Shown: in pieces, positions 2 through 23,636 of the stretch
Numbering within the stretch: the stretch's first letter is position 1
How the letters are laid out: each line of letters begins with the position of its first letter
NCBI RefSeq assembly: GCF_000007185.1
Contig: NC_003551.1
Coordinates: forward strand, 540,001 to 572,000
From: Methanopyrus kandleri AV19
GTDB lineage: Archaea > JAADCQ01 > Methanopyri > Methanopyrales > Methanopyraceae
DNA: 32,000 nucleotides
Direction: 5' to 3'
The notes under the pieces: generated by a model
The model's database searches: none
What the model saw: only the letters and a program-made list of their open reading frames with translations
Told to the model about the DNA's origin: nothing
Made by a program: the position numbers and the translations under genes

Positions 2-490
2 GACATCGAGGCCCCGCTCTACGCCGCCGCGGTGCGAACGCGTCCCATGCTCAGGCCGGTGACGCTGGGGAAGGTCTCGCACCTCGAGCTCGACGATGAG
101 GAGGGTACTCTCAAGGTATCGGTCGCCGTGGAGCGCTACTTCCCCGATGTGATCCGAACGTTACAGAGTGTATTCGGAGAGGATCGCGTCCGGCACGAAG
201 AGCGCCTCGAGATTACGATCGAGCCACCCGAGGGGATGAGTCCCGAACATCTCGAGAAACTCGAAGAGCTCGTCGTCCACGATCCTCGGAAGAAGCTCGC
301 CCACAGGGTGTACGATTTCATCGAGCGGGTACGGCCAGAGGGGTTCCGAGTGGCCCGATACGCGCGCTTCGATCAGGACTTCCTATACCTGGCCAGCGAA
401 GGCACGCTCGAGGACGAGTGGACCGACTTACTCTTCGAGCTGCCGGGAGAGCTAGATCGTGTCGGAGAGCGCCGGGGGCCGAGTGAGTGA
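2..490 (+). CDS. hypothetical acidic protein, 5' end probably outside the window
   Basis: The frame is open from nt 2, so the ORF-track GTG at 32 may be internal. The stop overlaps the GTG start of the next gene (487-490), suggesting translational coupling. No motif recognised. Confidence 0.5.
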   Translation, partial: DIEAPLYAAAVRTRPMLRPVTLGKVSHLELDDEEGTLKVSVAVERYFPDVIRTLQSVFGEDRVRHEERLEITIEPPEGMSPEHLEKLEELVVHDPRKKLAHRVYDFIERVRPEGFRVARYARFDQDFLYLASEGTLEDEWTDLLFELPGELDRVGERRGPSE

Positions 491-1335
491 GAGGACCGTG
501 TCCGAACGATCACCCGTGTTACGTCGGGGAGCACGGGAAATTCGTGAAGGTGCACCTACCCGTGGGCGGACGGTGTAACATCCACTGCCGTTTCTGCGAA
601 TCCGGACTCGAGCACGAGGGAGTACGGGTGGATTATCCCGGACGTGCCGTCCGCACGATCACCGGAGACGAGGCTAGGACGGCCCTCAAAAGGGTAAAAG
701 AGCACTGCGGACGCGTCGACGTCGTCGGAATCGCCGGACCCGGCGACCCACTGGCGAACTGGGAGGACGTGAAGGAGACCTTCGACGTCGTCGCCGAAAC
801 GGTACCGGAGGCGAAACGCTGCCTGTCCACCAACGGCGTGTGGTTACCCGATTTGATCGACGAGGTGACGGAGCTCGTGCACTCGGTGACGATCACCGTC
901 AACGCGCTGGACCCCGAGATCGCGGCCGATATCTACGATCGAGCACTGACACCCGAAGGCGAGGTGTTGACCGGGAAGGAGGCCGCCCGATGGATCGTCG
1001 AGAGGCAGGAAGGGGCCATGGACGCGCTGAAGAAGGAGCGCTACATACTCAAGAAGGTCAACTTCGTGCTCGTCCCCGGTGTGAACGAAGACGAGGTCGA
1101 ACGCGTCGCGGAGCGCGCCGCCGACGCAGGGTTTCACGCCATGAACGTGATCCCCCTCATCCCGGGCGGCGACATGAAGGACCACCGACCGCCGACGTGC
1201 CGGGAGCTCTCGAGGGCGCGGGACCGGGCTGAGAAGTACATCACCGTGATGCGCCGATGCATGCAGTGTCGCGCCGACGTGATCCACTGCCGCGGCAGAC
1301 CCCGGCTGATCTGGGAGCTGCTAGAAGAGGACTGA
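487..1335 (+). CDS. NifB-like radical SAM protein (radical-SAM core only)
   Basis: CNIHCRFC (CX3CX2C) is preceded by HPC and VHLPV. It is followed by GIAGPGDPLAN, C-LSTNG, TITVNALDPEI, VNFVLVPGVNE and a C-terminal CMQC. These match the NifB signature blocks as I remember them. Confidence 0.8.
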   Translation: MRGPCPNDHPCYVGEHGKFVKVHLPVGGRCNIHCRFCESGLEHEGVRVDYPGRAVRTITGDEARTALKRVKEHCGRVDVVGIAGPGDPLANWEDVKETFDVVAETVPEAKRCLSTNGVWLPDLIDEVTELVHSVTITVNALDPEIAADIYDRALTPEGEVLTGKEAARWIVERQEGAMDALKKERYILKKVNFVLVPGVNEDEVERVAERAADAGFHAMNVIPLIPGGDMKDHRPPTCRELSRARDRAEKYITVMRRCMQCRADVIHCRGRPRLIWELLEED

Positions 1336-1354
1336 CCCCCTGGGGGTCGCGAGC

Positions 1355-2266
1355 GTGTTCGAAACCGTGATCTACGAAGGGGGCGTGTACAAGGCCGACG
1401 AGATGCGCGACCTGGTCGAGGACCTCGGCGGGTTCGTCCTGTCCGAGCACCAGATGCAGCTGGAGGTCCACATGGTTCTAGCCGTACCCGTCGACGACCT
1501 GGACGTCATAGAGCGGAAAGCGGAGGAGCTCCTCGGAGAGATAAGGAGGATGCCGCTGGCCGGTACCGAGATCGCGGTCGTGGGGATGAGCCTGGCCCGT
1601 CATCACATGCCACATCCCGTGTGTGACATCGCCGAGTACCTCAGGCGTCACGGCGCCAAGTCCAACGTGATCGGCTTGGCCAGAGGTTACGGACGCGAGC
1701 TGGCCCAGCTGCGCACCCGGGAGAAACGTCTCCTTGAAGAACACGACCTGGTGATCTTCGTCGTAGGGAACTTCAAAGATTGCATCGAGAAGTACAAGCT
1801 GCCGCTGGTCCGACGGATAGAACGCGTGCCGGTCGTCGTGGTGGGAGGTCCGGAGGAGATCGACGCCGACGACGTGGTGTACGTGGGAGGAATAGGTAGA
1901 AAGCCGTACCGGTTCAGGAAGGGTCGCGAGATCACGAAGCTCGACGAGATCGTCGACGTCGTCTCGAAGATCATCGAGGAGCGACGACAGGAGCTGGCTG
2001 AGGACCCGCCCGTCGTCCCACCGATGGTAGTGAAAGATCGAATCAACCGGGAGTTGAAGATCGAGGAGAGGTTCACCTCCCCCATGCCGATCACACTCCA
2101 GCTCGACGGTCTTCGGGTGAAGGCACCGTACGACGAGTGGGCGGATCGAGTGGCGGAGGTCGAGGTCTTCGGTTGGAAGCTCCGGGAGATCGCGGACATC
2201 AGGCGATCGGAGATGGACGATCACATCTTGGTGAAGATCAGACCTAAGAGCGCGGTGACGGGATGA
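1355..2266 (+). CDS. conserved methanogen protein resembling methanogenesis marker protein 7 (Mmp7)
   Basis: GTG start 19 nt after the NifB-like stop, with a GGGGGT SD-like run upstream. N-terminal YEGGVYK and the block ARHHMPHPVCDIAEYLRRHGAKSNVIGLARG match my memory of Mmp7-type proteins. The family call is from memory only. Confidence 0.5.
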   Translation: MFETVIYEGGVYKADEMRDLVEDLGGFVLSEHQMQLEVHMVLAVPVDDLDVIERKAEELLGEIRRMPLAGTEIAVVGMSLARHHMPHPVCDIAEYLRRHGAKSNVIGLARGYGRELAQLRTREKRLLEEHDLVIFVVGNFKDCIEKYKLPLVRRIERVPVVVVGGPEEIDADDVVYVGGIGRKPYRFRKGREITKLDEIVDVVSKIIEERRQELAEDPPVVPPMVVKDRINRELKIEERFTSPMPITLQLDGLRVKAPYDEWADRVAEVEVFGWKLREIADIRRSEMDDHILVKIRPKSAVTG

Positions 2267-2478: not shown

Positions 2479-3207
2479 TCAGGCGGCCTCCCGCTGTTTC
2501 ACCCTGTCGTACAGTCCTACCCGCTCCCGCCAGTAGCGACGGGCTTCTCTCTCACCCCTCCATAAACGTACGATGCGAAGGCTGTACCAGGCCGGCCACG
2601 GGGCCAACACGTCCACTAAGATGTCCCGAACCGTTCCGGGTAACCCCCTGAGTACGCTGTCGATGATCTCTTTCCCACTGCCGGGCCATCCGAGCCGACG
2701 CAACGGGTTGAACTCGACGGACCTTAGGATCGAACAAGTCCGACTGACTCCCTCCTTCACTATCTCCTCGAGTTTTTGGAGCACTTCCGCACGATGTTCG
2801 GCAGACATCTGTGCAAGCTGCCTCAGCACCGGTACGAGGGCCCTACGGACCGCCCTCGCCACGAACCACTTCGCCTTCCTGTGCTCCGACAACCTCGGTG
2901 CCGCGAGTCGAATCGTTTCGAGCCATTCCCGTAAGAATTGGACGGACTCGTTGTCTTCTCTGCCCAGGTAGATGGTACGGCCGCGCTCGCCCTTCCGCGG
3001 CTTCCACCGAGCCTCGTAGTACGGCCCATACACCTTCCCGTTCACCGACCGATACGACGCACCCAGGAACGGTAGAGTCCCCCGTTCCAAAGTCTCCACC
3101 AAGACCCGAAACACCCGAACCAACTCCACGGGGTCTTCGGGTACTTCCATCGGAACGCCCAACCGGACCGGATCGAGTACCGGTGGCCCTCCAGGCCTGA
3201 CGTTCAT
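2479..3207 (-). CDS. uncharacterised protein, YGPYY-IYLG family (paralog of 25272-25817)
   Basis: Long ORF. I prefer ATG 3207 over the track's GTG 3222. A TATA-like ggattttaa lies upstream on the minus strand. It shares DPVE(L/R)(V/I)R, YR..(N/A)G..YGPYY, IYLG, SV.F.EWL and PW.AW blocks with 25272-25817. Confidence 0.6.
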   Translation of the reverse strand: MNVRPGGPPVLDPVRLGVPMEVPEDPVELVRVFRVLVETLERGTLPFLGASYRSVNGKVYGPYYEARWKPRKGERGRTIYLGREDNESVQFLREWLETIRLAAPRLSEHRKAKWFVARAVRRALVPVLRQLAQMSAEHRAEVLQKLEEIVKEGVSRTCSILRSVEFNPLRRLGWPGSGKEIIDSVLRGLPGTVRDILVDVLAPWPAWYSLRIVRLWRGEREARRYWRERVGLYDRVKQREAA

Positions 3208-3480
3208 TCGATTGACCCCCACTCCCAGTACCGAACGCGCTTAAAATCCTTTCGATTACGGACGCACAATCTTGGCGTTGGGCTTAAATTTGTGCGAACG
3301 TTCATTTTCCCGCCAGAACTGCTGGGACGGCCAGAACCATGGTGGTCGAGTATGGTAAGGGGGCAAATAATTTAACTGACCCGGTCGAGTTCATGGTCAG
3401 ATCAACGCTCGCACAAATGAGAATGATTGGAAAGAGAGGGGGCGGGAAGGGAGGCTCCCACCGGTCGGGGGTCAAGGCCC

Positions 3481-4767
3481 ATGAGCCGCGGCACCAAGGC
3501 CGGCATCTACCGAGATGTACTCGTTATTGAAGTTTTCCCCGGGGCGGTCCCCGACACGGGGACGCTCCGAGCCCTGAACGAGAGGGAGCGTAGGTTACTC
3601 CTAGCGGCAGCTGGATACGATGTCACTGAGTTCTGGGCTAGAAGTTTCATAGGACTGCTCTTCGACCATCCTACGCCCCTCGTTAGGGCATCCGAGAGAC
3701 ACGAGAAACTGTTACCGGAGGCGACGGTGGCGGCAGTCCGCGAGTTGTGCGATCGTATCGAACCCGAGAAGTTACGGAAGATCCGTAGCCGTGTGGCCTC
3801 CGGGGAGACCCCGAGGGAGGCCGTGCGTCGTGTCCTCGGATCCAAGATGGCCGGAGCCGTTTCCAGACTACTCGGTCGTGTTATGGGTTACGTACAGTCC
3901 GACCCGCTCTCCGTGGCCATCACCCTCCAGGTGTTAGGCACCATGATCGCAGCGGACAAACGCCTAGAGGACGTGTCGACGGTTTTGGTCGTCGTCCCGG
4001 GCCTAGAGCACGTGCACATCGACGTATATCGACTGGCACGAAGGGTTTACTCTAACCTCGTGAGGGCGATGAAGTCCCTCAGACGCTACCTCAACCCTCG
4101 AGTTAGGGTGCGGGTGTACGTAGCCACGGGAGGTAAACTGGAACATCCAGCGGGAGATTCCCCCGAGGAGGAGCTGATCGAGGCGTACGAGGAGCTCTCA
4201 AGGAGGCCCACCGTGAGACGCTTCTTCCCGGAGCGTGGCCACTTCACCGAGGTACCTTGGGACCGAGCACTCGCTGAGTTTTTTGTGCGAGTTATCCGAA
4301 GGGAGCTCCACCGTAGGTCTCTGAAGGTAGTTCGGGCTGCGAAGCGGGAGGGTGCTTCGGGTAGAGAGCTGTCTGAAGTGTACGGCAGGGAGTACGGTAA
4401 GTGGTTGAGCAGGTGGTTCAAACGCGGTCGTCGATGGCTGAACTTTCACAGACCTAGTCCGGCACTCTCCGATATCTCCTGCTGCTTCGTAGCGTCAGAG
4501 GCGGGAGTAGAAGGATACCATGAGGAGTTCTTGATAAAGGTACTCCAGAAGGTGTTGAGAGAAGTCGTCGAACGCAGGGTGACAGGACGACGGCTTGTGC
4601 GAAAAATAGTCAGGAAGATCGCCAGGGTCCTAAAGGAGGACTTCAGGGTCGAAGGGAAGATACGCGAAGGGATTCTCCACATGGCGAGGCTACTCGGTGG
4701 CAGACGCAAAGCCGCGTTAGGTGGCAAGACACTGCTCGAAGCGTTCGGGGCACCTCCACCGAGTTGA
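3481..4767 (+). CDS. large Arg-rich orphan protein, no recognisable domain
   Basis: 1.3 kb uninterrupted ORF. ATG 3481 follows a purine-rich ggaagggagg run, whereas the track start 3427 is TTG. No Walker, nuclease or recombinase motif seen. Confidence 0.55.
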   Translation: MSRGTKAGIYRDVLVIEVFPGAVPDTGTLRALNERERRLLLAAAGYDVTEFWARSFIGLLFDHPTPLVRASERHEKLLPEATVAAVRELCDRIEPEKLRKIRSRVASGETPREAVRRVLGSKMAGAVSRLLGRVMGYVQSDPLSVAITLQVLGTMIAADKRLEDVSTVLVVVPGLEHVHIDVYRLARRVYSNLVRAMKSLRRYLNPRVRVRVYVATGGKLEHPAGDSPEEELIEAYEELSRRPTVRRFFPERGHFTEVPWDRALAEFFVRVIRRELHRRSLKVVRAAKREGASGRELSEVYGREYGKWLSRWFKRGRRWLNFHRPSPALSDISCCFVASEAGVEGYHEEFLIKVLQKVLREVVERRVTGRRLVRKIVRKIARVLKEDFRVEGKIREGILHMARLLGGRRKAALGGKTLLEAFGAPPPS

Positions 4768-5063
4768 GGGTATCTTCGGACGGTAACCCCACGATCGTGA
4801 GCGGCGGAGGTGCCGACAATTGTTACGATTTCAATAACATTTGAATATCGCAACGAAAATTCTTTTACTTGCAGTTAATTCAGAGCCCGATATACAGTTA
4901 TTCATCGAGCTAATTCCTCTACTTTCATTGAGTGAACGAGGGTAATAGTAGACGGTTATGGCGCGCGATGGCAGATAAGTAACCAAATAACGTCCTTTTT
5001 TATTTGGACTTCTATTCGCCAACCTTCCACAGCCGAGAGTGTGAAACTGCGGGCGCGAGGAAG

Positions 5064-5954
5064 ATGGACGTGAAGACGTTAGTCGGAGAGTACTACGCCT
5101 CACTTCCCAGCGGCGTGTTACGAGAGTTCGTGGAAGACCCGAGCTCCCGCGAGTGGGCGTACACCTTCCTAAAGGGACGGGATATCGTATTCACCCGAAA
5201 GCGGAGGTTGGACGAGGTCTCAGGGTTCTTAGAGCTGTATCACTCGACTGGGAAGTTCAAGAACCCGAAATCGTGGGAGGGACTCCTCGGCTGGGATCTG
5301 GTGATCGACGTGGACGCGGAGCTTCCGGAGGAGCCCGAGGCGTTCCTCAAATCGCTGGGGAGGCTACTCAAGGATGTAGTGATAGCATGCGACGAGTTAC
5401 GTCGGGCGTTAGGGTTCCCACGACCGGACGTGGTTAATTTCTCTGGATCCAAGGGGTTTCACGTGAGGTACTTCGACAGCACCGTGCGACGGTGGCTGAG
5501 ATGGGACTTACACGAGCGTCGAGGTATAAAGCCGGGCGAGATCATCCAGCGGGTGGGTCGTGGAGTCGTATGGTTGGCACGTGAGGGTTTCGTGGCTGGG
5601 GACAGAGTGCGTGCACTCCGCGAGGGGCTCTTGGATGACTCGATGTACGATCTCAAGAGACTGATCCGATGCGTCGGATCGATGAACGTCAAGTCGCTAC
5701 TCCCCGCAGTGCCGGTGTGGTCGCGAGAGGGGGGTCGGTGGGTGGACTTTCGGGACGAGGTCCTAGGAATGAACGATTTGGAGCTGGGATGCCTGGTCGC
5801 CCACCGCACGTTGACCTGGCCCGGCCGTGGGGGATTGGGCGTAGTACTTTCCCGCGTACTCGACTTAGACACGGATGCAGATCCGGAGGATCCAAGCGAC
5901 TTCGTCGAGGTATGGGGGAACGTGATGTCGGTGCTGGGGGAGCTTAAGCCGTGA
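5064..5954 (+). CDS. priS: archaeo-eukaryotic primase catalytic (small) subunit-like protein
   Basis: AEP motif I is LVIDVDAE, motif II is FSGSKGFHV, and motif III region is YDLKRLIRCVGSMNVKS. N-terminal REWAYTF...R resembles the PriS REFAF block. ATG 5064 follows gcgaggaag. The stop overlaps the cofC start. Confidence 0.65.
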   Translation: MDVKTLVGEYYASLPSGVLREFVEDPSSREWAYTFLKGRDIVFTRKRRLDEVSGFLELYHSTGKFKNPKSWEGLLGWDLVIDVDAELPEEPEAFLKSLGRLLKDVVIACDELRRALGFPRPDVVNFSGSKGFHVRYFDSTVRRWLRWDLHERRGIKPGEIIQRVGRGVVWLAREGFVAGDRVRALREGLLDDSMYDLKRLIRCVGSMNVKSLLPAVPVWSREGGRWVDFRDEVLGMNDLELGCLVAHRTLTWPGRGGLGVVLSRVLDLDTDADPEDPSDFVEVWGNVMSVLGELKP

Positions 5955-6523
5955 GGTTCGTGGTGCCGTTCGCGGATAGGGGGGATCGTAAGACCCGGCT
6001 GTCCTCGTGCATGGACGAGGAGACGCGTGAGCGGTTCGCGTTGGCGATGCTAAGGCACGTGGTAAGGGTGCTCTCCAAGTTCGGCGAGGTAGAAGTGGTA
6101 ACTCCGGACTCCAGCCTGTCGGTGCCGGGGACGAAGGTACGACGGAGTGACGCGAGTCTCGACGAGCTGCCGCTTCCGGACGGTGAGTTCGGGCTGGTGA
6201 TGTCGGATCTACCGTTGCTGTCCGAAGAGGACGTCGAGCGGGCGTTGGAGGGGTTGAAAGACGCGGATGTCGTTCTCTGCCCGTCCCGACGAGGTGGAAC
6301 GAGTGGAGTGTTCGTGAGGAAGGGTGTACGGTTCAGGCCGACGTTCGGTGGTGTGAGCTTCCCTAGGAACTTGAGACGGGCGGAGAAGCAAGGGGTGGAA
6401 GTCGCCGTGGTGAAGTCGTTGGGGTTCTTCGCCGATGTGGACGAGCCGGAAGACCTGCTCGACGCGGCGTTGTTGGGGAGGAGGGAAGTGGCGAAGATTG
6501 CGCGTTCCGTCGTCGAAGTCTGA
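5951..6523 (+). CDS. cofC: 2-phospho-L-lactate guanylyltransferase (F420 biosynthesis)
   Basis: Contains VVPF...KTRLS, SDLPLLSEEDV, CPSRRGGTSG, FGGVSF and ADVDEPEDL in CofC order. About 190 aa. GTG start overlaps the upstream stop (GTGA). Confidence 0.7.
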   Translation: MRFVVPFADRGDRKTRLSSCMDEETRERFALAMLRHVVRVLSKFGEVEVVTPDSSLSVPGTKVRRSDASLDELPLPDGEFGLVMSDLPLLSEEDVERALEGLKDADVVLCPSRRGGTSGVFVRKGVRFRPTFGGVSFPRNLRRAEKQGVEVAVVKSLGFFADVDEPEDLLDAALLGRREVAKIARSVVEV

Positions 6524-7817: not shown

Positions 7818-9116
7818 ATGCTCCTGATAGTCGCGGGACACGATCCCACGGGAGCCGGTCTCAGGGCAGACATAGCGACGGCCGAAGCCCTCGGAGTACC
7901 GGCGGTTTCGCTCCCGACGTTGCTATCGCTCCAGGATGAGGGCGTCGAGCTAGTCGAGCCCGTTGACTCACGGTTCTTATCGGACTGCTTGGCCCGATAC
8001 GTCCCAAGGTGCGAGGTGGTCAAAGTCGGGGCCGTTCCTACTCTGAAAACCTTCGAGATACTGGCGAAACGGCTCCGTGACCTGACGGTAGTGTGGGACC
8101 CCGTGTTCAGAGCCGAGGCCGGAGGGGAGTTATCCGAAGCGACTCCTGAAGAGGCGTTGGAAACGTTTGGGGAAACAGTCGATATCCTCACTCCCAATAC
8201 GGAAGAGCTGAGTCAGCTGGTCGGAAGGGAGGTACGCACCACGGTGGAGGCCGAGCTCGCAGCCCGTGAGCTGGTGGAGGAGTACGGCCTGACGGGTGTC
8301 CTCGTCACGGGGGGACACTCCGTCGACAGACGCGATGTGTGGGTGCCGGCTGAGGGGAACACCATCGCGTGGGAGGTGCCTCCGGGTGAAGGCGCTCACG
8401 GGTCCGGGTGCGTGCTCTCCACGGCTCTCGCGTGCTTCTTGGTCCGCGGGTTGGACCCTGAGACCGCCGTAGAACGAGCCGTTCGGTTCGCGAGAGCGGC
8501 GGTCCGAGAGGCCCGGAACACGCCCTTCGGCCGGGTGGCAGATCCCGTCGCACAAATTCGACGTGACGCGACATTGGGGAAGGCAACGCAGCACGTGATC
8601 CGGGCACTCGAGATCATCGAGTCGGACCCGGCCTTCGCGAGGGCGATCCCACAGGTCGGAATGAACGTGGCGGAGGTCTTCGACCCCTCCCGGGGTCTTG
8701 AAGGTGTTGTGGGACTCTCGGGTCGAATCGTCCTCGACGGTGATAGACCCACCGCGGTCGGTCGCCCGGTTCCGGGGGGCTCCAAGCACGTCGGCACCGT
8801 GGCTTTGACGGCACATCGGCTCGACCCCTCGGTCCGGGCCGCGGTGAACGCCAGGTACGACGAGGAGCTTATCGAGAGGGCCCGCGATCTCGGGTTCGTA
8901 GTGTCTTCGTTCGACCGGTCGGAAGAGCCGGAGGAAGTCGACTCCACGATGGAGTGGGGCACCGAGGTGGCGTTTCGGAGGGCGGACGACACTCCCGACG
9001 TCGTCTACGACGAGGGCGACGTGGGTAAGGAACCGATGATACGCGTGCTCGGAAAGAGTGCCGTGGAGGCCGTGACTAAGCTGAGAATGTTGTTGGGATG
9101 TGTTGTTGGGGTGTAA
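7818..9116 (+). CDS. thiDN: bifunctional HMP/HMP-P kinase and ThiN-type thiamine-phosphate synthase
   Basis: N-terminal ThiD part has VAGHDPTGAGLRADI, LTPNTEEL and GSGCVLSTALA. C-terminal ThiN-like part has IPQVGMNVAE, GLSGRIV and GGSKHVGT. Confidence 0.85.
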   Translation: MLLIVAGHDPTGAGLRADIATAEALGVPAVSLPTLLSLQDEGVELVEPVDSRFLSDCLARYVPRCEVVKVGAVPTLKTFEILAKRLRDLTVVWDPVFRAEAGGELSEATPEEALETFGETVDILTPNTEELSQLVGREVRTTVEAELAARELVEEYGLTGVLVTGGHSVDRRDVWVPAEGNTIAWEVPPGEGAHGSGCVLSTALACFLVRGLDPETAVERAVRFARAAVREARNTPFGRVADPVAQIRRDATLGKATQHVIRALEIIESDPAFARAIPQVGMNVAEVFDPSRGLEGVVGLSGRIVLDGDRPTAVGRPVPGGSKHVGTVALTAHRLDPSVRAAVNARYDEELIERARDLGFVVSSFDRSEEPEEVDSTMEWGTEVAFRRADDTPDVVYDEGDVGKEPMIRVLGKSAVEAVTKLRMLLGCVVGV

Positions 9117-9732
9117 GGGAGTGAGCTCGTTCAAACGACTGCTTTACCTGGACGTGATCTCCCGAAGTCACGCGGATTTCGCCAAGAGGGTGATCAGGAG
9201 GTTAGAGCCCAAGGTCAAGGTGAGGGTGGAGTGTCTCTCGAAGTACGAGCGGGAGGACGACGCGCTGACGTACGACGGTCGGCTCAAGGACGAGGAACCC
9301 TGGAAGGAGTTCTTACGGCGGCTGGGACGTGAGAGTTCCGACACCGTGGTAGCTACCGCGCTGAACGTACCCCCCGACGTGCCGGATATATCTCCGAACC
9401 CGACCGTGGTTATAGGAGTGAACACGGGCGATCATCCCAAGACGTTGGAAGTCGCGGGTCTTGCGGACGTGGTTGTTGTCGGTCGTCGCCTATACTCACC
9501 GAGCACCGGCCCTCGTGAGTTCGGCCGCGTACGCTCGGGGAGGCTCAGGAACGGTACGGTGATCGTGGACGTCGAGGACCTCGGCCTACGGTACGCCAGC
9601 AAGGCGGTACCCGTAATCGCGGTTCTAGTGGCGGAAAACGGTGTTGACGGGTTGATCCGGGATCTCAGGCGTAACCGCGTAAGGACCCTGACGGAGGAAG
9701 TCCTCCGGGATCTATCGCTCTCCCAGGTATAA
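9100..9732 (+). CDS. hypothetical protein
   Basis: ORF with host-like codon usage. GTG 9100 overlaps the thiDN end, and GTG 9121 is an alternative start. No motif recognised. Confidence 0.45.
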   Translation: MLLGCKGVSSFKRLLYLDVISRSHADFAKRVIRRLEPKVKVRVECLSKYEREDDALTYDGRLKDEEPWKEFLRRLGRESSDTVVATALNVPPDVPDISPNPTVVIGVNTGDHPKTLEVAGLADVVVVGRRLYSPSTGPREFGRVRSGRLRNGTVIVDVEDLGLRYASKAVPVIAVLVAENGVDGLIRDLRRNRVRTLTEEVLRDLSLSQV

Positions 9733-9884
9733 GGTGACGCCAATGAAAAACAACACTGACGACACTCATATTGTCCATCCTAAGCCACCCTACCTACCTC
9801 ACACTAACATGAGCTAGTTCAACTCGACATAAGTTCGGACCGACATGATGTGACAGGTTACTACCCATTATCTCACCCGAAAAC

Positions 9885-9893
9885 TATTTATAC
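9885..9893 (+). promoter_or_regulatory. TATA-box-like element upstream of the surface-protein locus
   Basis: tatttatac sits in an AT-rich spacer about 60 nt upstream of ATG 9954. Confidence 0.4.
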
Positions 9894-9953
9894 AAGCAAT
9901 TAGTGGTCCCACGTGAGACAAACACTGGGCCACAAGGTAAACAACATGTCCCC

Positions 9954-10763
9954 ATGGGAGAGACATGCGTGAGCAAAGCGCAAATACTAGTTGTCCTTGC
10001 GATGCTGTCCGTAGGACTACAATCGGTATCAGCGGCACCAATTGAAGGACAGTTCGTCGAGGAGAATGACTACCAGTGGTCGGTTCAGGTGACCCACTGC
10101 GAGCCCACCATCGACATGACCAAGTACCCGGTGATCGTGGGCGAAAAGGCCGTCTATCTGGTGCTGTTAGATGAGAGGGACGTTCAGAAAGGAGGGGGTC
10201 TCTGTGACTACCAGCCGGCCCTGATGCCGGTACCCAAAGATTACGTGGAGATTTCCGGGAACAAGCTGTCGTTCAAAGTCAACCTGGAGGGTCAGAAGCT
10301 CCCGTTCTACTGCATGTACTTGGGTGTAGATTTCCCCGACAAGCTGGTGATGGTGACCATCGAGGAGCTGGCTAAGCACAGCGTGAGGTACGATTGGGGC
10401 TACATTAGCGAGCCGAAACCGCTGACGCTGAGCTTCCTGAGGAAGATCGTCGAGGCGTTCGAGTCCCAAGTCGACAACCCATTCCCGCACAGTGCCTTCA
10501 AGAACGAGGCCGTTTGGAATGCCGTTAGGGACACGCCGTACATCATCAGCGGACCGGTGCACGTGTCGGCCGTCGACTACGGAACTGATTACGTGGAACT
10601 GGAGATCGAGATCCCGGTGAGAACTGATGTCACCGAGTTGACAGGAACGATCGAGGTGAAGTCCGGTGAGAGTACGCAGACTCTGAGCGTAACCGGCTCC
10701 GACGTGGTCAACGGCGTCATCAAGAAGCGCGAGTATCGCAGGCCTCGGATACCGTGGAAGTGA
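9954..10763 (+). CDS. surface-protein fragment 1: signal peptide, unique N-domain, first DYG module
   Basis: MGETCVSKAQILVVLAMLSVGLQSVSAAP is signal-peptide-like. The fragment ends ...RRPRIPWK*, whereas the paralogous module reads RSARIPIIVRV. Confidence 0.6.
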   Translation: MGETCVSKAQILVVLAMLSVGLQSVSAAPIEGQFVEENDYQWSVQVTHCEPTIDMTKYPVIVGEKAVYLVLLDERDVQKGGGLCDYQPALMPVPKDYVEISGNKLSFKVNLEGQKLPFYCMYLGVDFPDKLVMVTIEELAKHSVRYDWGYISEPKPLTLSFLRKIVEAFESQVDNPFPHSAFKNEAVWNAVRDTPYIISGPVHVSAVDYGTDYVELEIEIPVRTDVTELTGTIEVKSGESTQTLSVTGSDVVNGVIKKREYRRPRIPWK

Positions 10764-11515
10764 CCATCCAACTGAGCGGTGTCGTCGAGGGGCAGCAGGT
10801 TACCGACGTTTACCCCGTGACGATCACCGTCCAGCTGGTGAAACTCAACAGCTCGGTCAACATCACCGTGGAGAAGATCACGGAGTCGGAAGCCGTGCTC
10901 CGCGTGGATTACCAGATCAACACGGAGAACTGCAGCGTGAAGTCCGTGGAGGTGAAGCTGCTCAAGGACGGTAACGTCGTGGCGTCCGAAGAGAGGTCGC
11001 AAGCCGAGGGTACGGTGAGGTTCACGGTGAACGAGTCCGGCACGTACCGCGTGGTGATCGAGGCCACGGTGGAGTGGACGACACCGTCAGGTAGACACGA
11101 GGAGAAGCTCACCTTAGCGTCCGAGGACGTGGAGGTAACGCTATCGCGACTCGAGGTAGGTGCTCCCAGCGTGAAGGTATCCGACTACGGCGCCGATTGG
11201 GCGACCCTAGAGATCACGGTACCGGTAACGGCCGTCGGATGTGAGGTGACCGGTGGAAAGGTGGAGGTGATCGAAGCGGGAACCGGACACACGCTCGCCA
11301 CGACCGAAGCGACGGTCGATAACGGAGTCCTGAAGGCTACCGTCAAACTAACCGGTCTGCGGAGCGCCAGGATCCCGATCATCGTCCGTGTGACCGCCGA
11401 GGGTAAGACGCCGACCGGCGACAGCGTAACCGCCACGGCCGAAGCGTCGGTCGAGGTACGGCTGGCGAGCGCGGAGCTCGGAGGAAGTGTCCGAGTAGAG
11501 AGTCCGCGACCCTGA
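10754..11515 (+). CDS. surface-protein fragment 2 (modules B1 and A2)
   Basis: Lacks its own signal peptide. The frame is open from 10670. Its first residues VEVTIQL continue the module interrupted in fragment 1. Confidence 0.55.
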   Translation: MEVTIQLSGVVEGQQVTDVYPVTITVQLVKLNSSVNITVEKITESEAVLRVDYQINTENCSVKSVEVKLLKDGNVVASEERSQAEGTVRFTVNESGTYRVVIEATVEWTTPSGRHEEKLTLASEDVEVTLSRLEVGAPSVKVSDYGADWATLEITVPVTAVGCEVTGGKVEVIEAGTGHTLATTEATVDNGVLKATVKLTGLRSARIPIIVRVTAEGKTPTGDSVTATAEASVEVRLASAELGGSVRVESPRP

Positions 11516-11517
11516 GA

Positions 11518-11976
11518 GTGTGCTACGAGATCCACACGCAGAACTGTACGGTGGAGTCGGTGACGGTCGAGCTGCTCAAGCGTACGGATCAGGGTTGGGT
11601 AGTGGTCGATCGACGCACGCTGAGCGCGACCAGTGACGTCGTCACGTTCCGGGTGTCCGAGGAGGGTCAGTACAAGGTTAGGATCACGGCCCAGTGCACG
11701 CACGGTGTCACGATGACGGCCGAAACCGAACCGGTGACCGTGCAGTTCCTGCCGAAGGTCGAGATCAGTGGATTCAAGGTGGTCGAAACGGACTACGGTC
11801 CGGACTGGGTAGAGCTTCGGATAACAGCTGACGTCCACGTGGAGCGGGCTGAGAAGGTGAGTGGACTAGTGGTCGTCGAGGACGCTAAGGGCAACGTACT
11901 AGGTAAGTTCCCGGTCGAGATAAGCGACCACATGGATGTTAAAGTGCGTCTCGAAGGGCTAGAAAACGTATCATGA
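11518..11976 (+). CDS. surface-protein fragment 3 (modules B2 and A3)
   Basis: The frame is open from 11500. ESATLRVCYEIHTQNCTVESVTVELL aligns with ESEAVLRVDYQINTENCSVKSVEVKLL of fragment 2, so the annotated GTG start is inside a domain. Confidence 0.55.
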   Translation: MCYEIHTQNCTVESVTVELLKRTDQGWVVVDRRTLSATSDVVTFRVSEEGQYKVRITAQCTHGVTMTAETEPVTVQFLPKVEISGFKVVETDYGPDWVELRITADVHVERAEKVSGLVVVEDAKGNVLGKFPVEISDHMDVKVRLEGLENVS

Positions 11977-12042
11977 GAGCTTCCAGTAGTCGTCAAGCTT
12001 CGGATCGAAGCTAGTAACAACTCAGGTAAGAGCTGCGGTGAA

Positions 12043-12624
12043 GTGTCGGTTAAAACATCACTGAAACTCGAGCAAACAACCACTGAGTCTAGCACAGAAA
12101 CATCCTACGAACAGGAGACATCATCGACAACTGGAGGTACTACAACTGGAGGTGCTGAGACATCCTCAGGATCGTCGGTGGAGAGTCACACAGAAGCTAG
12201 TGAATCGAGTGGAGAGAACAACGGTGGAGAAGCTGAGACTGAGACGGGTACGGTGACGACGACCCCAGCCCAGATCAAGGACCTCAAAGCCGTTGTGGAG
12301 AAGGTGAAGCCTGGACAGGTAATAATTGATGTCAGCGGTCGGGTTGAAGTGAAGCACTGTCGGTCTGAGATAATACTAGTGGTGATCTACAACGGTAAGG
12401 TGATCAAACGAATCACCGTCAAACTATCGAATGGTACTTTCAAGGAGAAGATTGAAGTCACGGGGATTCCATTGGTTGATCCAGGGCAGCTAACCGTTAA
12501 ACTCGAGGTGAAGGTATCCACTAAAATCGTGGCTTCCAGGGACATTAAAGTGGACATTCCGAGACCAGTGGGAGTAACAGTGGTGCCTGCGAAGGGTAAG
12601 AAATACACGGTTATCGTATATTAG
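12043..12624 (+). CDS. surface-protein fragment 4: S/T/E/G-rich linker plus beta-rich domain
   Basis: Same frame as fragment 3, with only TGA 11974 between them. The low-complexity stretch TTTESSTETSYEQETSSTTGGTTTGGAETSSGSS is visibly lower in GC. Confidence 0.55.
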   Translation: MSVKTSLKLEQTTTESSTETSYEQETSSTTGGTTTGGAETSSGSSVESHTEASESSGENNGGEAETETGTVTTTPAQIKDLKAVVEKVKPGQVIIDVSGRVEVKHCRSEIILVVIYNGKVIKRITVKLSNGTFKEKIEVTGIPLVDPGQLTVKLEVKVSTKIVASRDIKVDIPRPVGVTVVPAKGKKYTVIVY

Positions 12625-12633
12625 GACGGATCA

Positions 12634-12933
12634 GTGTACGTAGTTGATGAGCAAAATAGAGTTGTGGACAGTGTCGTACTGTCGAAGAAGGTGAAGCGGA
12701 TCGTAGAGGTACGCGGTGACCAGCTGGTAATCGAGACTCAGACCGGAGAACGGTGCATCCTCAAGGTCGACGAGAGAGGTGAACTTAGGCCTGTCAAATT
12801 CTTGGTGATCAAGTCGGGGAGCTACGAAGTATCAGTGGCCGGTAGTGCTAAGGCTAAGGCCAAGGCCCGCGCCACGCCGCTGATCCTGATACTACCGATC
12901 CTGCTCAGGCTAGTCAGGAGGAGCACGGCCTGA
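12634..12933 (+). CDS. surface-protein fragment 5 with C-terminal membrane anchor
   Basis: Same frame as fragment 4, separated only by TAG 12622-12624 and three sense codons. It ends AKAKAKARATPLILILPILLRLVRRSTA (hydrophobic helix plus basic tail). Confidence 0.55.
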   Translation: MYVVDEQNRVVDSVVLSKKVKRIVEVRGDQLVIETQTGERCILKVDERGELRPVKFLVIKSGSYEVSVAGSAKAKAKARATPLILILPILLRLVRRSTA

Positions 12934-14372: not shown

Positions 14373-16742
14373 TTGTTCGGCGACAGTCGTTTGGTTCTGG
14401 CGTTGCTCGTGATCCTGGTGGGTGCGACGATAGCCAACGCGGGGAACCTGATGTACCCGCTCTTAAGCAGAGACTCGCGCGCTCACGTGCTCAAGATATG
14501 GTACACATACCACATGCTTGCCGACGGTCGATGGGACCCGTGGTGCCCGATGTGGTACTCGGGATTCCCGTACCTCACGTATTACGGTTCCTTGGGGTAC
14601 CTACTCGGCGCCGCCGTGGACGCGATAGTCAAGGATCCGGTACGGACGTTCGTCGTCTGCCTGATCGTCGCCTCCGCGTTGATCGGAGTGGGAGTCTACG
14701 CGCTCGTGCGGGCTCGAGGGTACGCCCGGAAGGTAGCCGTGATCTGCGCGCTTCTGGGCCTCACCTCCGGAGGGTTCATGAAAGCGCTGAACTGGGAGGG
14801 CGTGTACCCGACGATTCTATCCCTGGGGTTCGGGTTCCTGGCTCTTTCCTGCTACGAGCGGTGGTTGCGGGGTGAGAAGCGTCACCTGGCCTACGCGACG
14901 TTACTCCTGGTGCCCGCCTGCTACTCCCATCCGCTCGGCGGTCTACTTTCCGGAGGGTTGATTCTGACCCGTGGGATCGCCGAAGCCGTGCTTCGGGAGA
15001 AGCTTCGGACCCCCAGGTTCCTGTTGCAATCCACGGCACCCGTTGCCATCGGGATCGCGATCGCGTTCTCGCACTACGCGGCGGCGATCTACTACAAGAG
15101 GTTCCTATCGGAGCTGTGGTTATATCCACCAGGTTCCGTGGCGGGAGTTCTGAAAGACCTGACCGTGGGGGGTAAGTGGTCTACCGGACTGCTCGTAACG
15201 GTGACCGGCATCGTGGGCGTCGCTTACGAGATTCGACGTCGTACCGGGTTCGGTTTGTTCGTGTTGTTCTGGGGTATGGTCTCGATCGTGGTGACCTTCG
15301 CCTTCGTTCTCGGGTACTGGAAGTACCTCCCTCTCGGCAAGAACATGCTCGCGGAGCGTTACACGACTGTCCTCATGCCGATGCTGCTCGCAGTGACGGC
15401 GGCCCCCGTCGTTCGTCAGCTGCTCCGGTCGGTAAAAGCGGCTTGGGCGGCACCCCTCGGAGTGGCAGGGTTGCTTCTCTCCGGTAGCGTCGGAGCCCTG
15501 ACGTACGTTCCTCCCGAGCCCCCACACGTCACGTCATCGGCCATGAAGTTATGGAAGTGGATGGGGGACAGCTGGCCGGACGACTCGTATACTGCCCGTT
15601 GTGATGCCGACCCTTACACGCATCTTTTCGACGCGAGCGTTCCGATTTCACCGATATACTCCGGGCACCCGACGATCATGGGGTGGTTCTCCCAAGGAGA
15701 CCCGATGTTCTTCTCCCTGGCCGCCCGCTGGGAGTGGGAGCTCGGTTGGGTGTACGATCCCAACACCCTCAAAACCTCGCTCTGGGCGACCAACACCCGA
15801 TACCTGCTGACGAAATCCTCGCTGCTGTCGAAGAAGTTGTCCCAGGAGCCGGGTTTCGTGTTACGGAAGAAGGCCGGTGACTACCGTGTGTTCGAGTTCT
15901 TAGGCCATGGTGGCTCCGCGTGCGTCGTCCCACATCCTATCGCGGTAGTGGATCGTCGCTTGGGCCTCAGGACCGAGAACGCGTACTACACCACGCTCCT
16001 CAACTTCGTCGCGACTCCCGGCAACCGGTACGTGTTCGTCGACGCCACGTTCTGCGACGCGAGGAAGTTCGACAGAGTGATCGTGAGACCTCTGACGCCG
16101 GGTGACGTGGACCGGGCGGTGAAGCTGGCTCGGGAGGGTCGTAAGGTACTGCTCATCCTACCGGTCTCCGACACACGAGTTGCCCGTGCCGTTGAACGTC
16201 TCGGTGTCAGGGTGAGTCCGGCCAGTCCGCCTTCCTTCGTTCCCCTCCGGAAGTACCTACCGTCCGCGTACCGAGTGGACGGCAGATGGTGGAAGGACGT
16301 GCGCGTCGGTCACGGGCTCGTCCGTGTGTGCGGTGTGGACGTGGTATACTTCACCATGCGGTTCCACAGGCTCATCAAGGAGGTGCAAACCGAAGGATAC
16401 CGCATGCCCAGGCTACCGACGGATGAGGAGCGGAAGTTCGTCAACGGGGTCTTGCGAGGGTTCGATTCCGGGAAACCCACTCAAGTTCACCTGGAGTACC
16501 GCGGCGACCCTGCTGTGATGCGGGTATGTGGTAACGGGTGGGTGTACCTGAAGGTCAAGTACTTCCCCGCGTGGCGGTCCTCCGACGGTCCCGTCTACCC
16601 TGCTTCATGTGGACAGATGCTGGTGCGAGCCCACGGAGACACCGTACTGAGGTACGAGTTACCACAGTCCCTGTCCTACGGCTCTTACGCCGCGGCCGTA
16701 CTGGGTACCCTGGCGCTCGGGGCGATGCTACTATGGATGTAA
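14373..16742 (+). CDS. large polytopic membrane protein, possibly a GT-C-type glycosyltransferase
   Basis: The N-terminal half (~400 aa) is rich in hydrophobic, likely TM segments, followed by a ~350 aa soluble domain and a final TM. The first-loop region RDSRAHV...WDPWCPMWYSGFPYLTYYG is reminiscent of GT-C enzymes. The function is inferred only. Confidence 0.6.
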   Translation: MFGDSRLVLALLVILVGATIANAGNLMYPLLSRDSRAHVLKIWYTYHMLADGRWDPWCPMWYSGFPYLTYYGSLGYLLGAAVDAIVKDPVRTFVVCLIVASALIGVGVYALVRARGYARKVAVICALLGLTSGGFMKALNWEGVYPTILSLGFGFLALSCYERWLRGEKRHLAYATLLLVPACYSHPLGGLLSGGLILTRGIAEAVLREKLRTPRFLLQSTAPVAIGIAIAFSHYAAAIYYKRFLSELWLYPPGSVAGVLKDLTVGGKWSTGLLVTVTGIVGVAYEIRRRTGFGLFVLFWGMVSIVVTFAFVLGYWKYLPLGKNMLAERYTTVLMPMLLAVTAAPVVRQLLRSVKAAWAAPLGVAGLLLSGSVGALTYVPPEPPHVTSSAMKLWKWMGDSWPDDSYTARCDADPYTHLFDASVPISPIYSGHPTIMGWFSQGDPMFFSLAARWEWELGWVYDPNTLKTSLWATNTRYLLTKSSLLSKKLSQEPGFVLRKKAGDYRVFEFLGHGGSACVVPHPIAVVDRRLGLRTENAYYTTLLNFVATPGNRYVFVDATFCDARKFDRVIVRPLTPGDVDRAVKLAREGRKVLLILPVSDTRVARAVERLGVRVSPASPPSFVPLRKYLPSAYRVDGRWWKDVRVGHGLVRVCGVDVVYFTMRFHRLIKEVQTEGYRMPRLPTDEERKFVNGVLRGFDSGKPTQVHLEYRGDPAVMRVCGNGWVYLKVKYFPAWRSSDGPVYPASCGQMLVRAHGDTVLRYELPQSLSYGSYAAAVLGTLALGAMLLWM

Positions 16743-22039: not shown

Positions 22040-22300
22040 GCCGTTGGCCCCGGCTCATAAGAGCCACCGATTCAGGGCACTGTCCGACCGGTCTCAGGGT
22101 GGCGGTGCACCCGATTACCCCCTACCTCTCCCGAGCTCCCCATGGGAGCTGCGGTTCATCGGTTCGGGGTTATGGGTGGCTTGTGATTCGAGGGCAAGAC
22201 AGTGGTACAGTTCGAACCCGTTAAGTACTCCAGCTCCGGTTCGGGAGGGTCATCGGTGGCCCTCGTTAGCAGGTTATAGGCCCTCACGATGTCAGCATTC
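22040..22300 (-). ncRNA. candidate omega-RNA (TnpB guide RNA scaffold) overlapping the tnpB 3' end
   Basis: GC content jumps at the tnpB 3' end. Stacked GC-rich stems are AGCTCCC/GGGAGCT, GCCACC/GGTGGC, CGAACC/GGTTCG, GAGGG/CCCTC and GGCTC/GAGCC. The position matches where omega-RNAs map. Boundaries are guessed. Confidence 0.3.
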
Positions 22301-23580
22301 ATAGTTTTTCCACACTTTGAGCAGATCACTAGCCCTCCGTTCCGTTTGCATTTACTTCTGCACATCGGACATGTTACCGAAGTGTACGCAGGACTAGCCT
22401 CAATGACCTCTATACCGTACTCTTCACATTTCCGTTTGATCTCCCTTATAATTCGCTTGTAGGCCCAGTATGCTAGCTCCCCATGCAGCTTTTGGCGTAA
22501 GCCTTTAAGATCCTCAATAACTAATAGCGTTACCTCACGACTGAGCAAGATCTGAACTAGTTTGCTCACCAAATGCCGGATCGCGTCCATGATCGCCCGG
22601 TGAGCTTTAACGTAATACTGTTTCAGACGGTGAGAGAAATTAGCCCCATTTTTGTTGAGTCGCCGCTGTTCTTTCGGGGCCTTGATTTTTCTCCAGTATG
22701 ACCACCGAGACCATGCGTCACCCCATCGTACCAGAACCGGTTTCTTCCCATCTGAGAAATAAACAGCGGCGAATATGCGGCGGCCGATGTCAACAGCTGC
22801 GGCGTTCTCACAGTTATTTCCAGTCCGAGGTATAGGTCGAACCCGACCATTTGGAGTTAGCCGAGAGACGAGCCAGCTTTCGCCCTTATTCACCTTCATA
22901 TTCAAAGTAAGGTAATGAGCGTTATCTGCCCAACTATAGACGATCTCGCTACGCCCGAAGAACTCCTTGCCGTCGTCTCCGTTTAGGATAATCTTATCCG
23001 CTCTTTTGGGTTCTTTCACTCGGTTCGGGTGCCAGGGAAACCATCCCACGAACTCGAGCCTGACACCACGGCCGCGACCACGCTTAAATCCGACGTTGGG
23101 GAGGTTGTCGACGACATCGCCAAGTCCTAAGATTTCAATAACGCCACGATGTTCCAATGGATCGTACTCGAACCGTCGGATCTGGGAAGCTAGGAATACG
23201 AATCGCGGTTCCCTACCGAGCGGACCTTTCCAGTATCGTGGAGGTTGACAGATCGTTCTACGTTTGTTCGACTTTACCTCTTTGATTTGTTTGAAATAAG
23301 ATCGCCAAGCTTCAGTGTTCTTTTCCCCAATTGCGACTACTGTTTGAGTACCTAAAATTGGCCCATATTCTCTATAAATTCTCCTGAATGTAAGTTCTGA
23401 CCTAGAAACGGCGACAGCATCCAACTTGCCTTTGAAGAAAAATCGACGGCGAAGGTAGTTTAACTCGTTATACACGGCGGTACATCTGTCACTGAGGAAA
23501 ATCAGGTCTCTGCGGTACCCCTCAGGGCCGACAATTTTGAGGGTGATCGAGCGGTATCTATAGTCGGACCTAAGTGGCAC
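22156..23580 (-). CDS. tnpB: TnpB (IS605 OrfB-type RNA-guided RuvC endonuclease)
   Basis: RuvC-I is AAVDIGRRIFAAV, RuvC-II is LLVIEDLKGL, the zinc ribbon is CPMCRSKC...CSKCG, and RuvC-III is NADIVRAYN. The start is either GTG 23580 or, per the ORF track, 23634. Confidence 0.85.
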   Translation of the reverse strand: MPLRSDYRYRSITLKIVGPEGYRRDLIFLSDRCTAVYNELNYLRRRFFFKGKLDAVAVSRSELTFRRIYREYGPILGTQTVVAIGEKNTEAWRSYFKQIKEVKSNKRRTICQPPRYWKGPLGREPRFVFLASQIRRFEYDPLEHRGVIEILGLGDVVDNLPNVGFKRGRGRGVRLEFVGWFPWHPNRVKEPKRADKIILNGDDGKEFFGRSEIVYSWADNAHYLTLNMKVNKGESWLVSRLTPNGRVRPIPRTGNNCENAAAVDIGRRIFAAVYFSDGKKPVLVRWGDAWSRWSYWRKIKAPKEQRRLNKNGANFSHRLKQYYVKAHRAIMDAIRHLVSKLVQILLSREVTLLVIEDLKGLRQKLHGELAYWAYKRIIREIKRKCEEYGIEVIEASPAYTSVTCPMCRSKCKRNGGLVICSKCGKTMNADIVRAYNLLTRATDDPPEPELEYLTGSNCTTVLPSNHKPPITPNR

Positions 23581-23636
23581 GGATAGTACCCCTTGACGTG
23601 AGCAGGTTCTTGGTCGCAGCGTCTGAACCAACAATC

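Follow-up and report, generated by a model that had tools for sequence, protein, structure and literature searches.

A NifB-family gene between mmp17 and mmp7 in a methanogenesis-marker operon of Methanopyrus kandleri AV19

The DNA analysed here (the window) comprises 32,000 nt of contig NC_003551.1 from Methanopyrus kandleri AV19, with about 61% G+C, and carries close to its 5' end a gene for a stand-alone NifB-family radical-SAM enzyme, which is located between the methanogenesis marker genes mmp17 and mmp7. We propose, with a probability of roughly 75%, that this NifB makes L-type iron-sulfur clusters for the module that activates methyl-coenzyme M reductase (MCR). The enzyme would fuse two [4Fe-4S] units and insert a carbide derived from S-adenosylmethionine (SAM) to give an L-type cluster, [8Fe-9S-C], and such clusters would be delivered to the electron-transfer module of McrC, Mmp7 and Mmp17 and not to a nitrogenase; the module would then reduce F430 to Ni(I), whereby MCR becomes activated. 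The case for both the synthesis and the hand-off to Mmp7 and McrC builds on the family membership of the protein, the structure reported for the activation complex and the published essentiality of NifB in methanogens. A cluster module for MCR activation was also the suggestion of the original prediction for this DNA, which had the gene identities right and is in line with the genomic evidence, but the idea is not new, as Ramirez-Amador et al. (Nature 2025; PMC12176620) have proposed NifB as the source of the clusters in the MCR activation complex. The locus supports this leading hypothesis but does not prove it, and should be taken as corroboration and not as a discovery.

Identity of the NifB-family protein

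The gene at 487–1335 (+) starts with GTG and encodes 282 aa, and its product is a genuine member of the NifB family in the stand-alone archaeal form. All blocks quoted in the original prediction are found in the translation (HPC, VHLPV, CNIHCRFC, GIAGPGDPLAN, RCLSTNG, TITVNALDPEI and CMQC), and the protein matches the nifB model TIGR01290 over profile positions 11–278 of 441 with 221.1 bits (E 2e-65), compared with 43 bits (E 3e-11) against the MoaA profile. Its significant matches in the PDB are four NifB entries only, namely 7BI7, 7JMB and 7JMA (E 3e-59) and 6Y1X (E 3e-48). An alignment-based AlphaFold (AF2) model, with a pLDDT of 92.3 and a pTM of 0.90, gave NifB structures as the top five hits in Foldseek, with a TM of 0.87 and a root mean square deviation of 1.9 Å to 7BI7; among other radical-SAM enzymes the best match to the predicted model was PFL-AE with a TM of 0.60, MoaA reached 0.53, and none was above 0.65.

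The TIGR01290 score falls short of the curated cutoff of 343.65 bits, and so do those of accepted Methanobacteriales NifBs, with 292 and 315 bits. The model includes a NifX domain, which is without counterpart in archaeal NifBs and absent from the window protein; for these reasons the cutoff is uninformative for stand-alone NifB and was dropped as a test of membership.

A distance-based neighbour-joining (NJ) tree was made from 129 sequences, including seven Methanopyri proteins and, as outgroups, MoaA and two other radical-SAM groups. The Methanopyri proteins are monophyletic in 100 of 100 replicates and group with NifB, apart from the outgroups, in 96 of 100, in agreement with the grouping that had been expected. 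A sister relationship to the Methanobacteriales NifBs, as the shared synteny described below might suggest, was recovered in 0 of 100 replicates of this distance tree with its long Methanopyri branch.

Ligand residues and the loop variant

With ligand numbering taken from PMC8179604, PMC7145814 and PMC6053413, the CX3CX2C motif of the radical-SAM (RS) cluster is formed by C30, C34 and C37, which align to C38, C42 and C45 of MthNifB and are invariant in 122 sequences. The equivalents of the K1 ligands are C11, H23 and C112, corresponding to C18, H31 (the essential H43 of MaNifB) and C115 of MthNifB, and the three columns are invariant. Those of K2 are C258 and C261 in the motif CMQCRAD (C260 and C263 in MthNifB), so the auxiliary K-cluster positions are kept, as the original prediction had noted. 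The semi-conserved H16 is retained as well.

The flexible-loop cysteine and glutamate (C52 and E53 in MthNifB, C63 in MaNifB) are absent. The loop at 38–50, ESGLEHEGVRVDY, has no cysteine, and the column of E53 is V or A in all seven Methanopyri. Replacement of C52/E53 in MthNifB has been reported to abolish NifB-co formation (in the literature used for the numbering). The Methanopyri loop is also three residues longer, reading ESGLEH(E/D)G with a conserved E-H-E/D in 7/7 sequences, and an extra His-Cys pair specific to this clade, H267-C268, is located four residues past CxxCRAD. Further clade-wide changes, at positions that are 92–100% conserved elsewhere, are R29K, P36G, R47S, R55Y, V58R, G188Y, A218F and G269H.

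Loss of the loop cysteine is not unique to Methanopyrus. In a family alignment of P0001–P0120, L006, L007, L086 and L089 it is missing from 23 of the 123 sequences scored (21 of 122 in the set first examined), including homologs in NFL/Mar-type clusters. An extra cysteine at most eight residues after CxxCRAD occurs in 13 of these 23 sequences, compared with 3 of the 100 in which the loop cysteine is present (Fisher p = 4e-9, with relatedness ignored). Methanopyri have it as 'V.HC', and it reads 'AC' in another group, to which a homolog from an NFL/Mar-type cluster belongs. From this pattern of residues, the loss of the loop cysteine together with the extra C-terminal cysteine may be a ligand swap, and the trade may mark a NifB subclass that serves clients other than nitrogenase. 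The missing loop cysteine is a real departure from the textbook ligand set of NifB, but it argues only weakly against the synthesis of L-clusters because the homologs without it include those of NFL/Mar-type clusters, a class with [Fe8S9C].

A more specific proposal, which is tentative and rather doubtful, is that the Methanopyri protein serves MCR activation alone, as a rewired L-cluster synthase which has lost the Cys/Glu 'stopper' of the loop and gained His-Cys beside the CxxC of K2, and whose gene is coupled between mmp17 and mmp7. If true, NifB would hand over its product directly to the Mmp17/Mmp7 acceptor, and no carrier of the NifX or NifEN type would be needed. The missing Cys/Glu also puts the current "stopper loop" model of NifB to the test.

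Mmp7 and the operon layout

The gene downstream of nifB, at 1355–2266 (+), encodes a protein of 303 aa with an McrC-like domain, and its reading as methanogenesis marker 7 holds. The product matches TIGR03274 over the full profile (positions 1–302 of 302) with 491 bits, above the curated cutoff of 349.15 bits, and Pfam MCR_C with 388.7 bits; it aligns to chain H of PDB 8S7V with E 3e-87, and the residue numbering of the two is identical through position 143. Exactly two cysteines are present, as had been stated, C90 and C143, which like H84 are invariant across 18 diverse Mmp7 sequences. In the M. maripaludis structure, from which the ligand identities were taken, H84 and C143 ligate FeSIII at the Mmp7/Mmp17 interface, and C90 is located beside FeSII as a possible bridging ligand (PMC12176620). 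The M. kandleri residues H84, C90 and C143 occupy the same positions as these cluster-contacting residues.

The upstream ORF, first described as unknown, is the 3' part of mmp17 (methanogenesis marker 17, DUF2113; 1–490, +), which encodes a subunit of the activation complex and is cut by the window start. The full gene begins 137 nt before the window (9378–10004 in L001, 208 aa), and the GTG at 32 given by the ORF finder is not its true start. The partial product scores 182.6 bits with TIGR03291 (profile positions 49–185 of 185) and the full-length one 246.3 bits, both above the cutoff of 67.1 bits, and the match to chain G of 8S7V has an E of 2.6e-7. What was taken for a three-gene unit has five genes: the upstream DNA of L001 holds mmp5 (249 bits), mmp15 (773 bits) and mmp17 (246 bits), so that mmp5, mmp15 and the start of mmp17 are located just upstream and the window opens inside the operon.

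The genes mmp5-mmp15-mmp17-nifB-mmp7 are co-directional with gaps of 12, 12, -4 and 19 nt. The GTG of nifB overlaps the stop of mmp17 as GTGA at 487–490, confirming the overlap noted earlier, and mmp7 starts 19 nt past the nifB stop. The 4-nt overlap and the 19-nt spacer suggest that nifB is co-transcribed and translationally coupled with mmp17 and mmp7. Two GGGGG motifs, one at 474–478 (+) within the mmp17 CDS and one at 1342–1346 (+) in the spacer between nifB and mmp7, are each located 9–13 nt 5' of the following GTG start and might function as Shine-Dalgarno sequences. A TATA-like sequence, TTTGATTAA, is found upstream of mmp5, and the operon is preceded by a gene in divergent orientation and followed by a convergent one for a DUF1678 protein. 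The latter (2479–3222, −; PF07913, 314.7 bits) is located 212 nt after mmp7 and its product has no NCBIfam match.

No homologs of nifH, nifD, nifK, nifE or nifN were found among the window's 32 ORFs with 90 aa or more, as the original prediction had it, or among the genes in the 10 kb upstream (42 kb in total), and the same 42 kb contain no mmp3, mmp6, atwA or mcrC. To our knowledge M. kandleri does not fix nitrogen, and if the organism is non-diazotrophic its NifB would be free of a competing client. A DUF2111 gene is found outside the operon on the opposite strand (region of 1956–2306 (−) and 2965–4473 (−) in L001, 5–8 kb upstream of the window), with hdrC and hdrB for heterodisulfide reductase nearby.

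Gene order in other methanogens

Loci were compared with Mmp7 as the anchor, using one genome per species and the best 80 of 579 relatives' loci, in which the operon genes were mapped with profiles; a second survey was anchored on Mmp15. The order mmp5-mmp15-mmp17-nifB-mmp7 is present in all seven Methanopyri contigs (L001–L007), which represent three lineages with NifBs that are 67–74% identical. Mmp17 diverges faster, with 58–66% identity, and nifB is thus not the fastest-evolving gene of the operon. The gene of the window NifB is also present on contig DUJS01000002.1 (assembly GCA_013329715.1), and the Mmp15 encoded next to it shares 100% identity with that of M. kandleri.

Among the 73 non-Methanopyri loci of these best 80, NifB was not found within 10 kb of mmp7. 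In about 65 loci from Methanobacteriales and Methanocaldococcus mmp7 stands alone, with an McrC-like gene about 5 kb downstream in many Methanobacteriales. In loci of the Halobacteriota type (L027, L051, L057, L068) mmp17 and mmp7 are adjacent and nifB is absent, with mmp5 and mmp15 upstream in those contigs that extend far enough, and mmp17 and mmp7 are adjacent also in loci labelled Methanomethylicota or Nitrososphaerota (L077, L084). The Mmp15 survey gave mmp2-mmp3-mmp6-DUF2111-mmp5-mmp15-mmp17-nifB in 4/4 Methanobacteriales-type loci, with a NifB that has the canonical loop Cys-Glu and is about 40% identical to the window protein. Methanomassiliicoccales and Methanofastidiosia have mmp17-mmp7 and no nifB, and in Methanococcales the mmp genes are dispersed.

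Methanopyrus merges two arrangements that are seen separately elsewhere, mmp17-nifB and mmp17-mmp7, and among the lineages sampled only Methanopyri have nifB between mmp17 and mmp7. The adjacency check of the original prediction was answered in part, with nifB-mmp7 in every Methanopyri locus and mmp17-nifB in the four Methanobacteriales loci, but with no nifB within 10 kb of mmp7 in the 73 loci from outside Methanopyri.

Two radical-SAM genes near mmp genes were considered as nifB and rejected. One, in Methanocaldococcus (L087, 13761–14618 (+), 285 aa), is located two genes after mmp17 and has no nifB hit, with 20.6 bits on a broad NifB profile; its best match is weak and MoaA-like, at 63 bits. 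The other, near the mmp cluster of Methanomassiliicoccales, is MoaA with 423 bits. Some labels are odd: L027 is named 'Candidatus Acidiferrales bacterium' yet has mmp17-mmp7, L084 is named 'Nitrososphaerota' yet has an mmp cluster, and L089/L019 belong to a 'Methanomicrobiales' metagenome-assembled genome with a Methanobacteriales-type cluster (L089); these may result from mis-binning or mislabelling.

Proposed role and alternative explanations

Several lines of earlier work agree with a role of NifB in methanogens outside nitrogen fixation. A NifB-like radical-SAM protein was listed among the methanogen-specific genes by Kaster et al. (2011), and a second function for nifB was suggested by Lie et al. 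(2022). According to Saini et al. (2023; bioRxiv 10.1101/2023.10.20.563283) NifB occurs universally in methanogens, M. acetivorans cannot live without it, and the NifB of the nitrogenase-free Methanothrix makes NifB-co in vivo and supports diazotrophy. A 2026 preprint describes that deletion of the mmp genes and of A2 from M. acetivorans was not achieved; the mmp genes are apparently essential. On the acceptor side, Ramirez-Amador et al. (2025) found L-cluster-like clusters on McrC and on Mmp7 at the Mmp17 interface (PMC12176620).

Some findings weigh against the proposal that the M. kandleri NifB makes L-type clusters for MCR activation. The loop Cys/Glu is absent, 20 of the 69 columns that are nearly invariant in the family differ in the Methanopyri protein, its stem in the NJ tree is long (0.39), and its TIGR01290 score is below the cutoff. 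Furthermore, nifB is located near neither mmp7 nor mmp15 in the loci of Methanococcales, Halobacteriota-type genomes, Methanomassiliicoccales, Methanofastidiosia or Methanomethylicota, and in the literature to mid-2026 no experiment that ties NifB to the MCR-activation clusters was found for any organism, as the original prediction had supposed; a 2026 review adds that characterisation of a NifB homologue from any non-diazotrophic methanogen is still to come, although the 2023 preprint describes in vivo complementation by the Methanothrix NifB.

The absent loop Cys/Glu and the long stem, together with R47S, R55Y and the other clade-wide changes at conserved positions and a TIGR01290 score of 221 bits compared with 292–315 in Methanobacteriales NifB, could mean that the chemistry of the Methanopyri protein is no longer that of NifB, so that the protein would form a different product, for instance a carbide-free fused 8Fe cluster, or serve mainly as a scaffold for Mmp7/Mmp17. 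This is regarded as unlikely, as the protein keeps all equivalents of the RS, K1 and K2 ligands, the SAM-binding core and the fold of NifB, the loop cysteine is also lacking in homologs from clusters of the [Fe8S9C] class, and the conserved new His-Cys by the K2 CxxC and the E-H-E/D of the loop could take over ligation.

It might also be that a NifB cluster is made for another client, such as a nitrogenase-like protein of the Nfl/CfbD type, and that the position among mmp genes reflects shared regulation with methanogenesis only. A nitrogenase-like client was proposed by Saini et al. before the 2025 structure, and NifB homologs do serve NFL/Mar systems (L095, L096; MarB), where the closest homolog of the window protein outside Methanopyri is found. 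This explanation is nevertheless held to be very improbable: genes of the NifD/K or NifH type are lacking in the window and the 10 kb upstream, CfbD is reported to have a [4Fe-4S] cluster only, and the known L-cluster-type sites in nitrogenase-free methanogens are those of McrC and Mmp7, with mmp7 being the next gene after the 19-nt spacer. That the adjacency of nifB and mmp genes is a historical accident of no functional meaning, as its absence from most methanogen orders sampled could suggest, deserves hardly any weight given the tight spacing on both sides of nifB, the order kept in three Methanopyri lineages despite the divergence of their NifBs and the persistence of mmp17-nifB in Methanobacteriales at only about 40% NifB identity, since gene order seldom outlasts such divergence without selection.

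The synthesis of L-type clusters by NifB for the MCR-activation module is therefore kept as the preferred explanation, and the M. kandleri operon is the tightest genomic link between NifB and its presumed acceptors found in this analysis. How nitrogenase-type clusters are built and loaded in the activation complex bears on methane biology, including the production of active MCR in other hosts, and the same question of cluster assembly bears on the evolutionary origin of nitrogenase cofactors. Mmp17, NifB and Mmp7 of M. kandleri constitute a compact, thermostable candidate set for reconstitution.

Other features of the window

An ORF of 492 aa at 22156–23634 (−) encodes a TnpB-family RNA-guided endonuclease (NF040570, 109.8 bits), and the 22–24 kb region in which it is located has a G+C of 0.525–0.548 compared with about 0.62 around it; the region is probably an IS200/IS605-type insertion. 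The G+C falls further, to 0.512, at 12–13 kb. A 316-aa ORF at 5004–5954 (+) has a weak match to the small subunit of DNA primase, PriS (31 bits, cutoff 326), and its stop is overlapped by the start of cofC at 5951–6523 (TIGR03552, 161.7 bits). Six co-directional ORFs of 210, 286, 253, 152, 193 and 99 aa at 9100–12933 (+), and a 789-aa ORF at 14373–16742 (+), show no NCBIfam match.

Comparison with known systems

The closest counterpart of the operon is the mmp cluster of Methanothermobacter, where mmp5-mmp15-mmp17 are likewise followed by a stand-alone nifB on the same strand. In M. marburgensis the mmp genes MTBMA_c04360-c04410 are described as "followed by nifB" (PMC12176620), and the arrangement was confirmed here in four Methanobacteriales loci, among them that of M. 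tenebrarum. The Methanobacteriales cluster differs in that it also contains mmp2, mmp3, mmp6 and DUF2111, the latter flanked by mmp6 and mmp5, while nifB is the last gene and mmp7 is located elsewhere. In Methanopyrus nifB is placed between mmp17 and mmp7, neither mmp3 nor mmp6 is found within 10 kb, DUF2111 is apart from the operon, and the NifB is without the canonical loop Cys-Glu of the Methanobacteriales protein.

At the protein level, the window NifB resembles the archaeal NifB structures from M. thermautotrophicus (7BI7, 7JMA, 7JMB) and Methanothrix thermoacetophila (6Y1X), with a length of about 280–300 aa, no NifX domain, a TM of 0.81–0.87, and the CX3CX2C motif, the Cys/His/Cys of K1 and the CxxC of K2 kept. 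The identity is about 41%, and the differences are that loop residues C52/E53 are gone, the loop has three more residues, H267-C268 are added and the clade-wide changes are present.

The MCR activation complex of M. maripaludis (8S7V, 8S7X, 9H1L), with McrC, Mmp7, Mmp17, Mmp3, A2 and DUF2098, has its counterpart here in Mmp7 and a recognisable Mmp17, which are known in M. kandleri from the genes. The genes of the complex are reported to be widely dispersed in M. maripaludis (PMC12176620), and consistent with this mmp15 is alone at the locus of the related M. voltae, whereas in Methanopyrus nifB is joined with four mmp genes in a single unit.

The NifB homologs of MarB/NFL clusters are similar in having a client other than nitrogenase for an L-type cluster, MarB being assumed to build the [Fe8S9C] cluster of methylthio-alkane reductase (Mar), and many of them lack the loop cysteine and have an extra C-terminal cysteine. 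The closest non-Methanopyri homolog of the window NifB, P0005 with 44% identity, is from such an NFL/Mar-type cluster. They differ in belonging to bacterial-type clusters with NifX-, NifH- and NifD/K-like genes and genes of sulfur metabolism, and in the form of the extra cysteine, which is 'CRADAC' and not 'CRADV.HC'. Two examples, L095 (2668–9097) and L096 (3713–6819), which contain the nearest relatives of the window NifB from outside Methanopyri, have the order NifB-like, NifX-like, NifH-like and NifD/K-like, with homologs that lack the loop cysteine. Both clusters are accompanied by genes for cysteine/methionine metabolism and a methionine transporter and closely preceded by a small DUF2292 gene, which in L095 is adjacent. 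No description of the Methanopyrus gene order or of its NifB loop variant was found in the literature, and what is new compared with the known systems is that nifB is placed between mmp17 and mmp7 throughout the Methanopyri, and that the ligand set of their NifB is altered in a clade-specific manner which parallels NFL/Mar-associated homologs.

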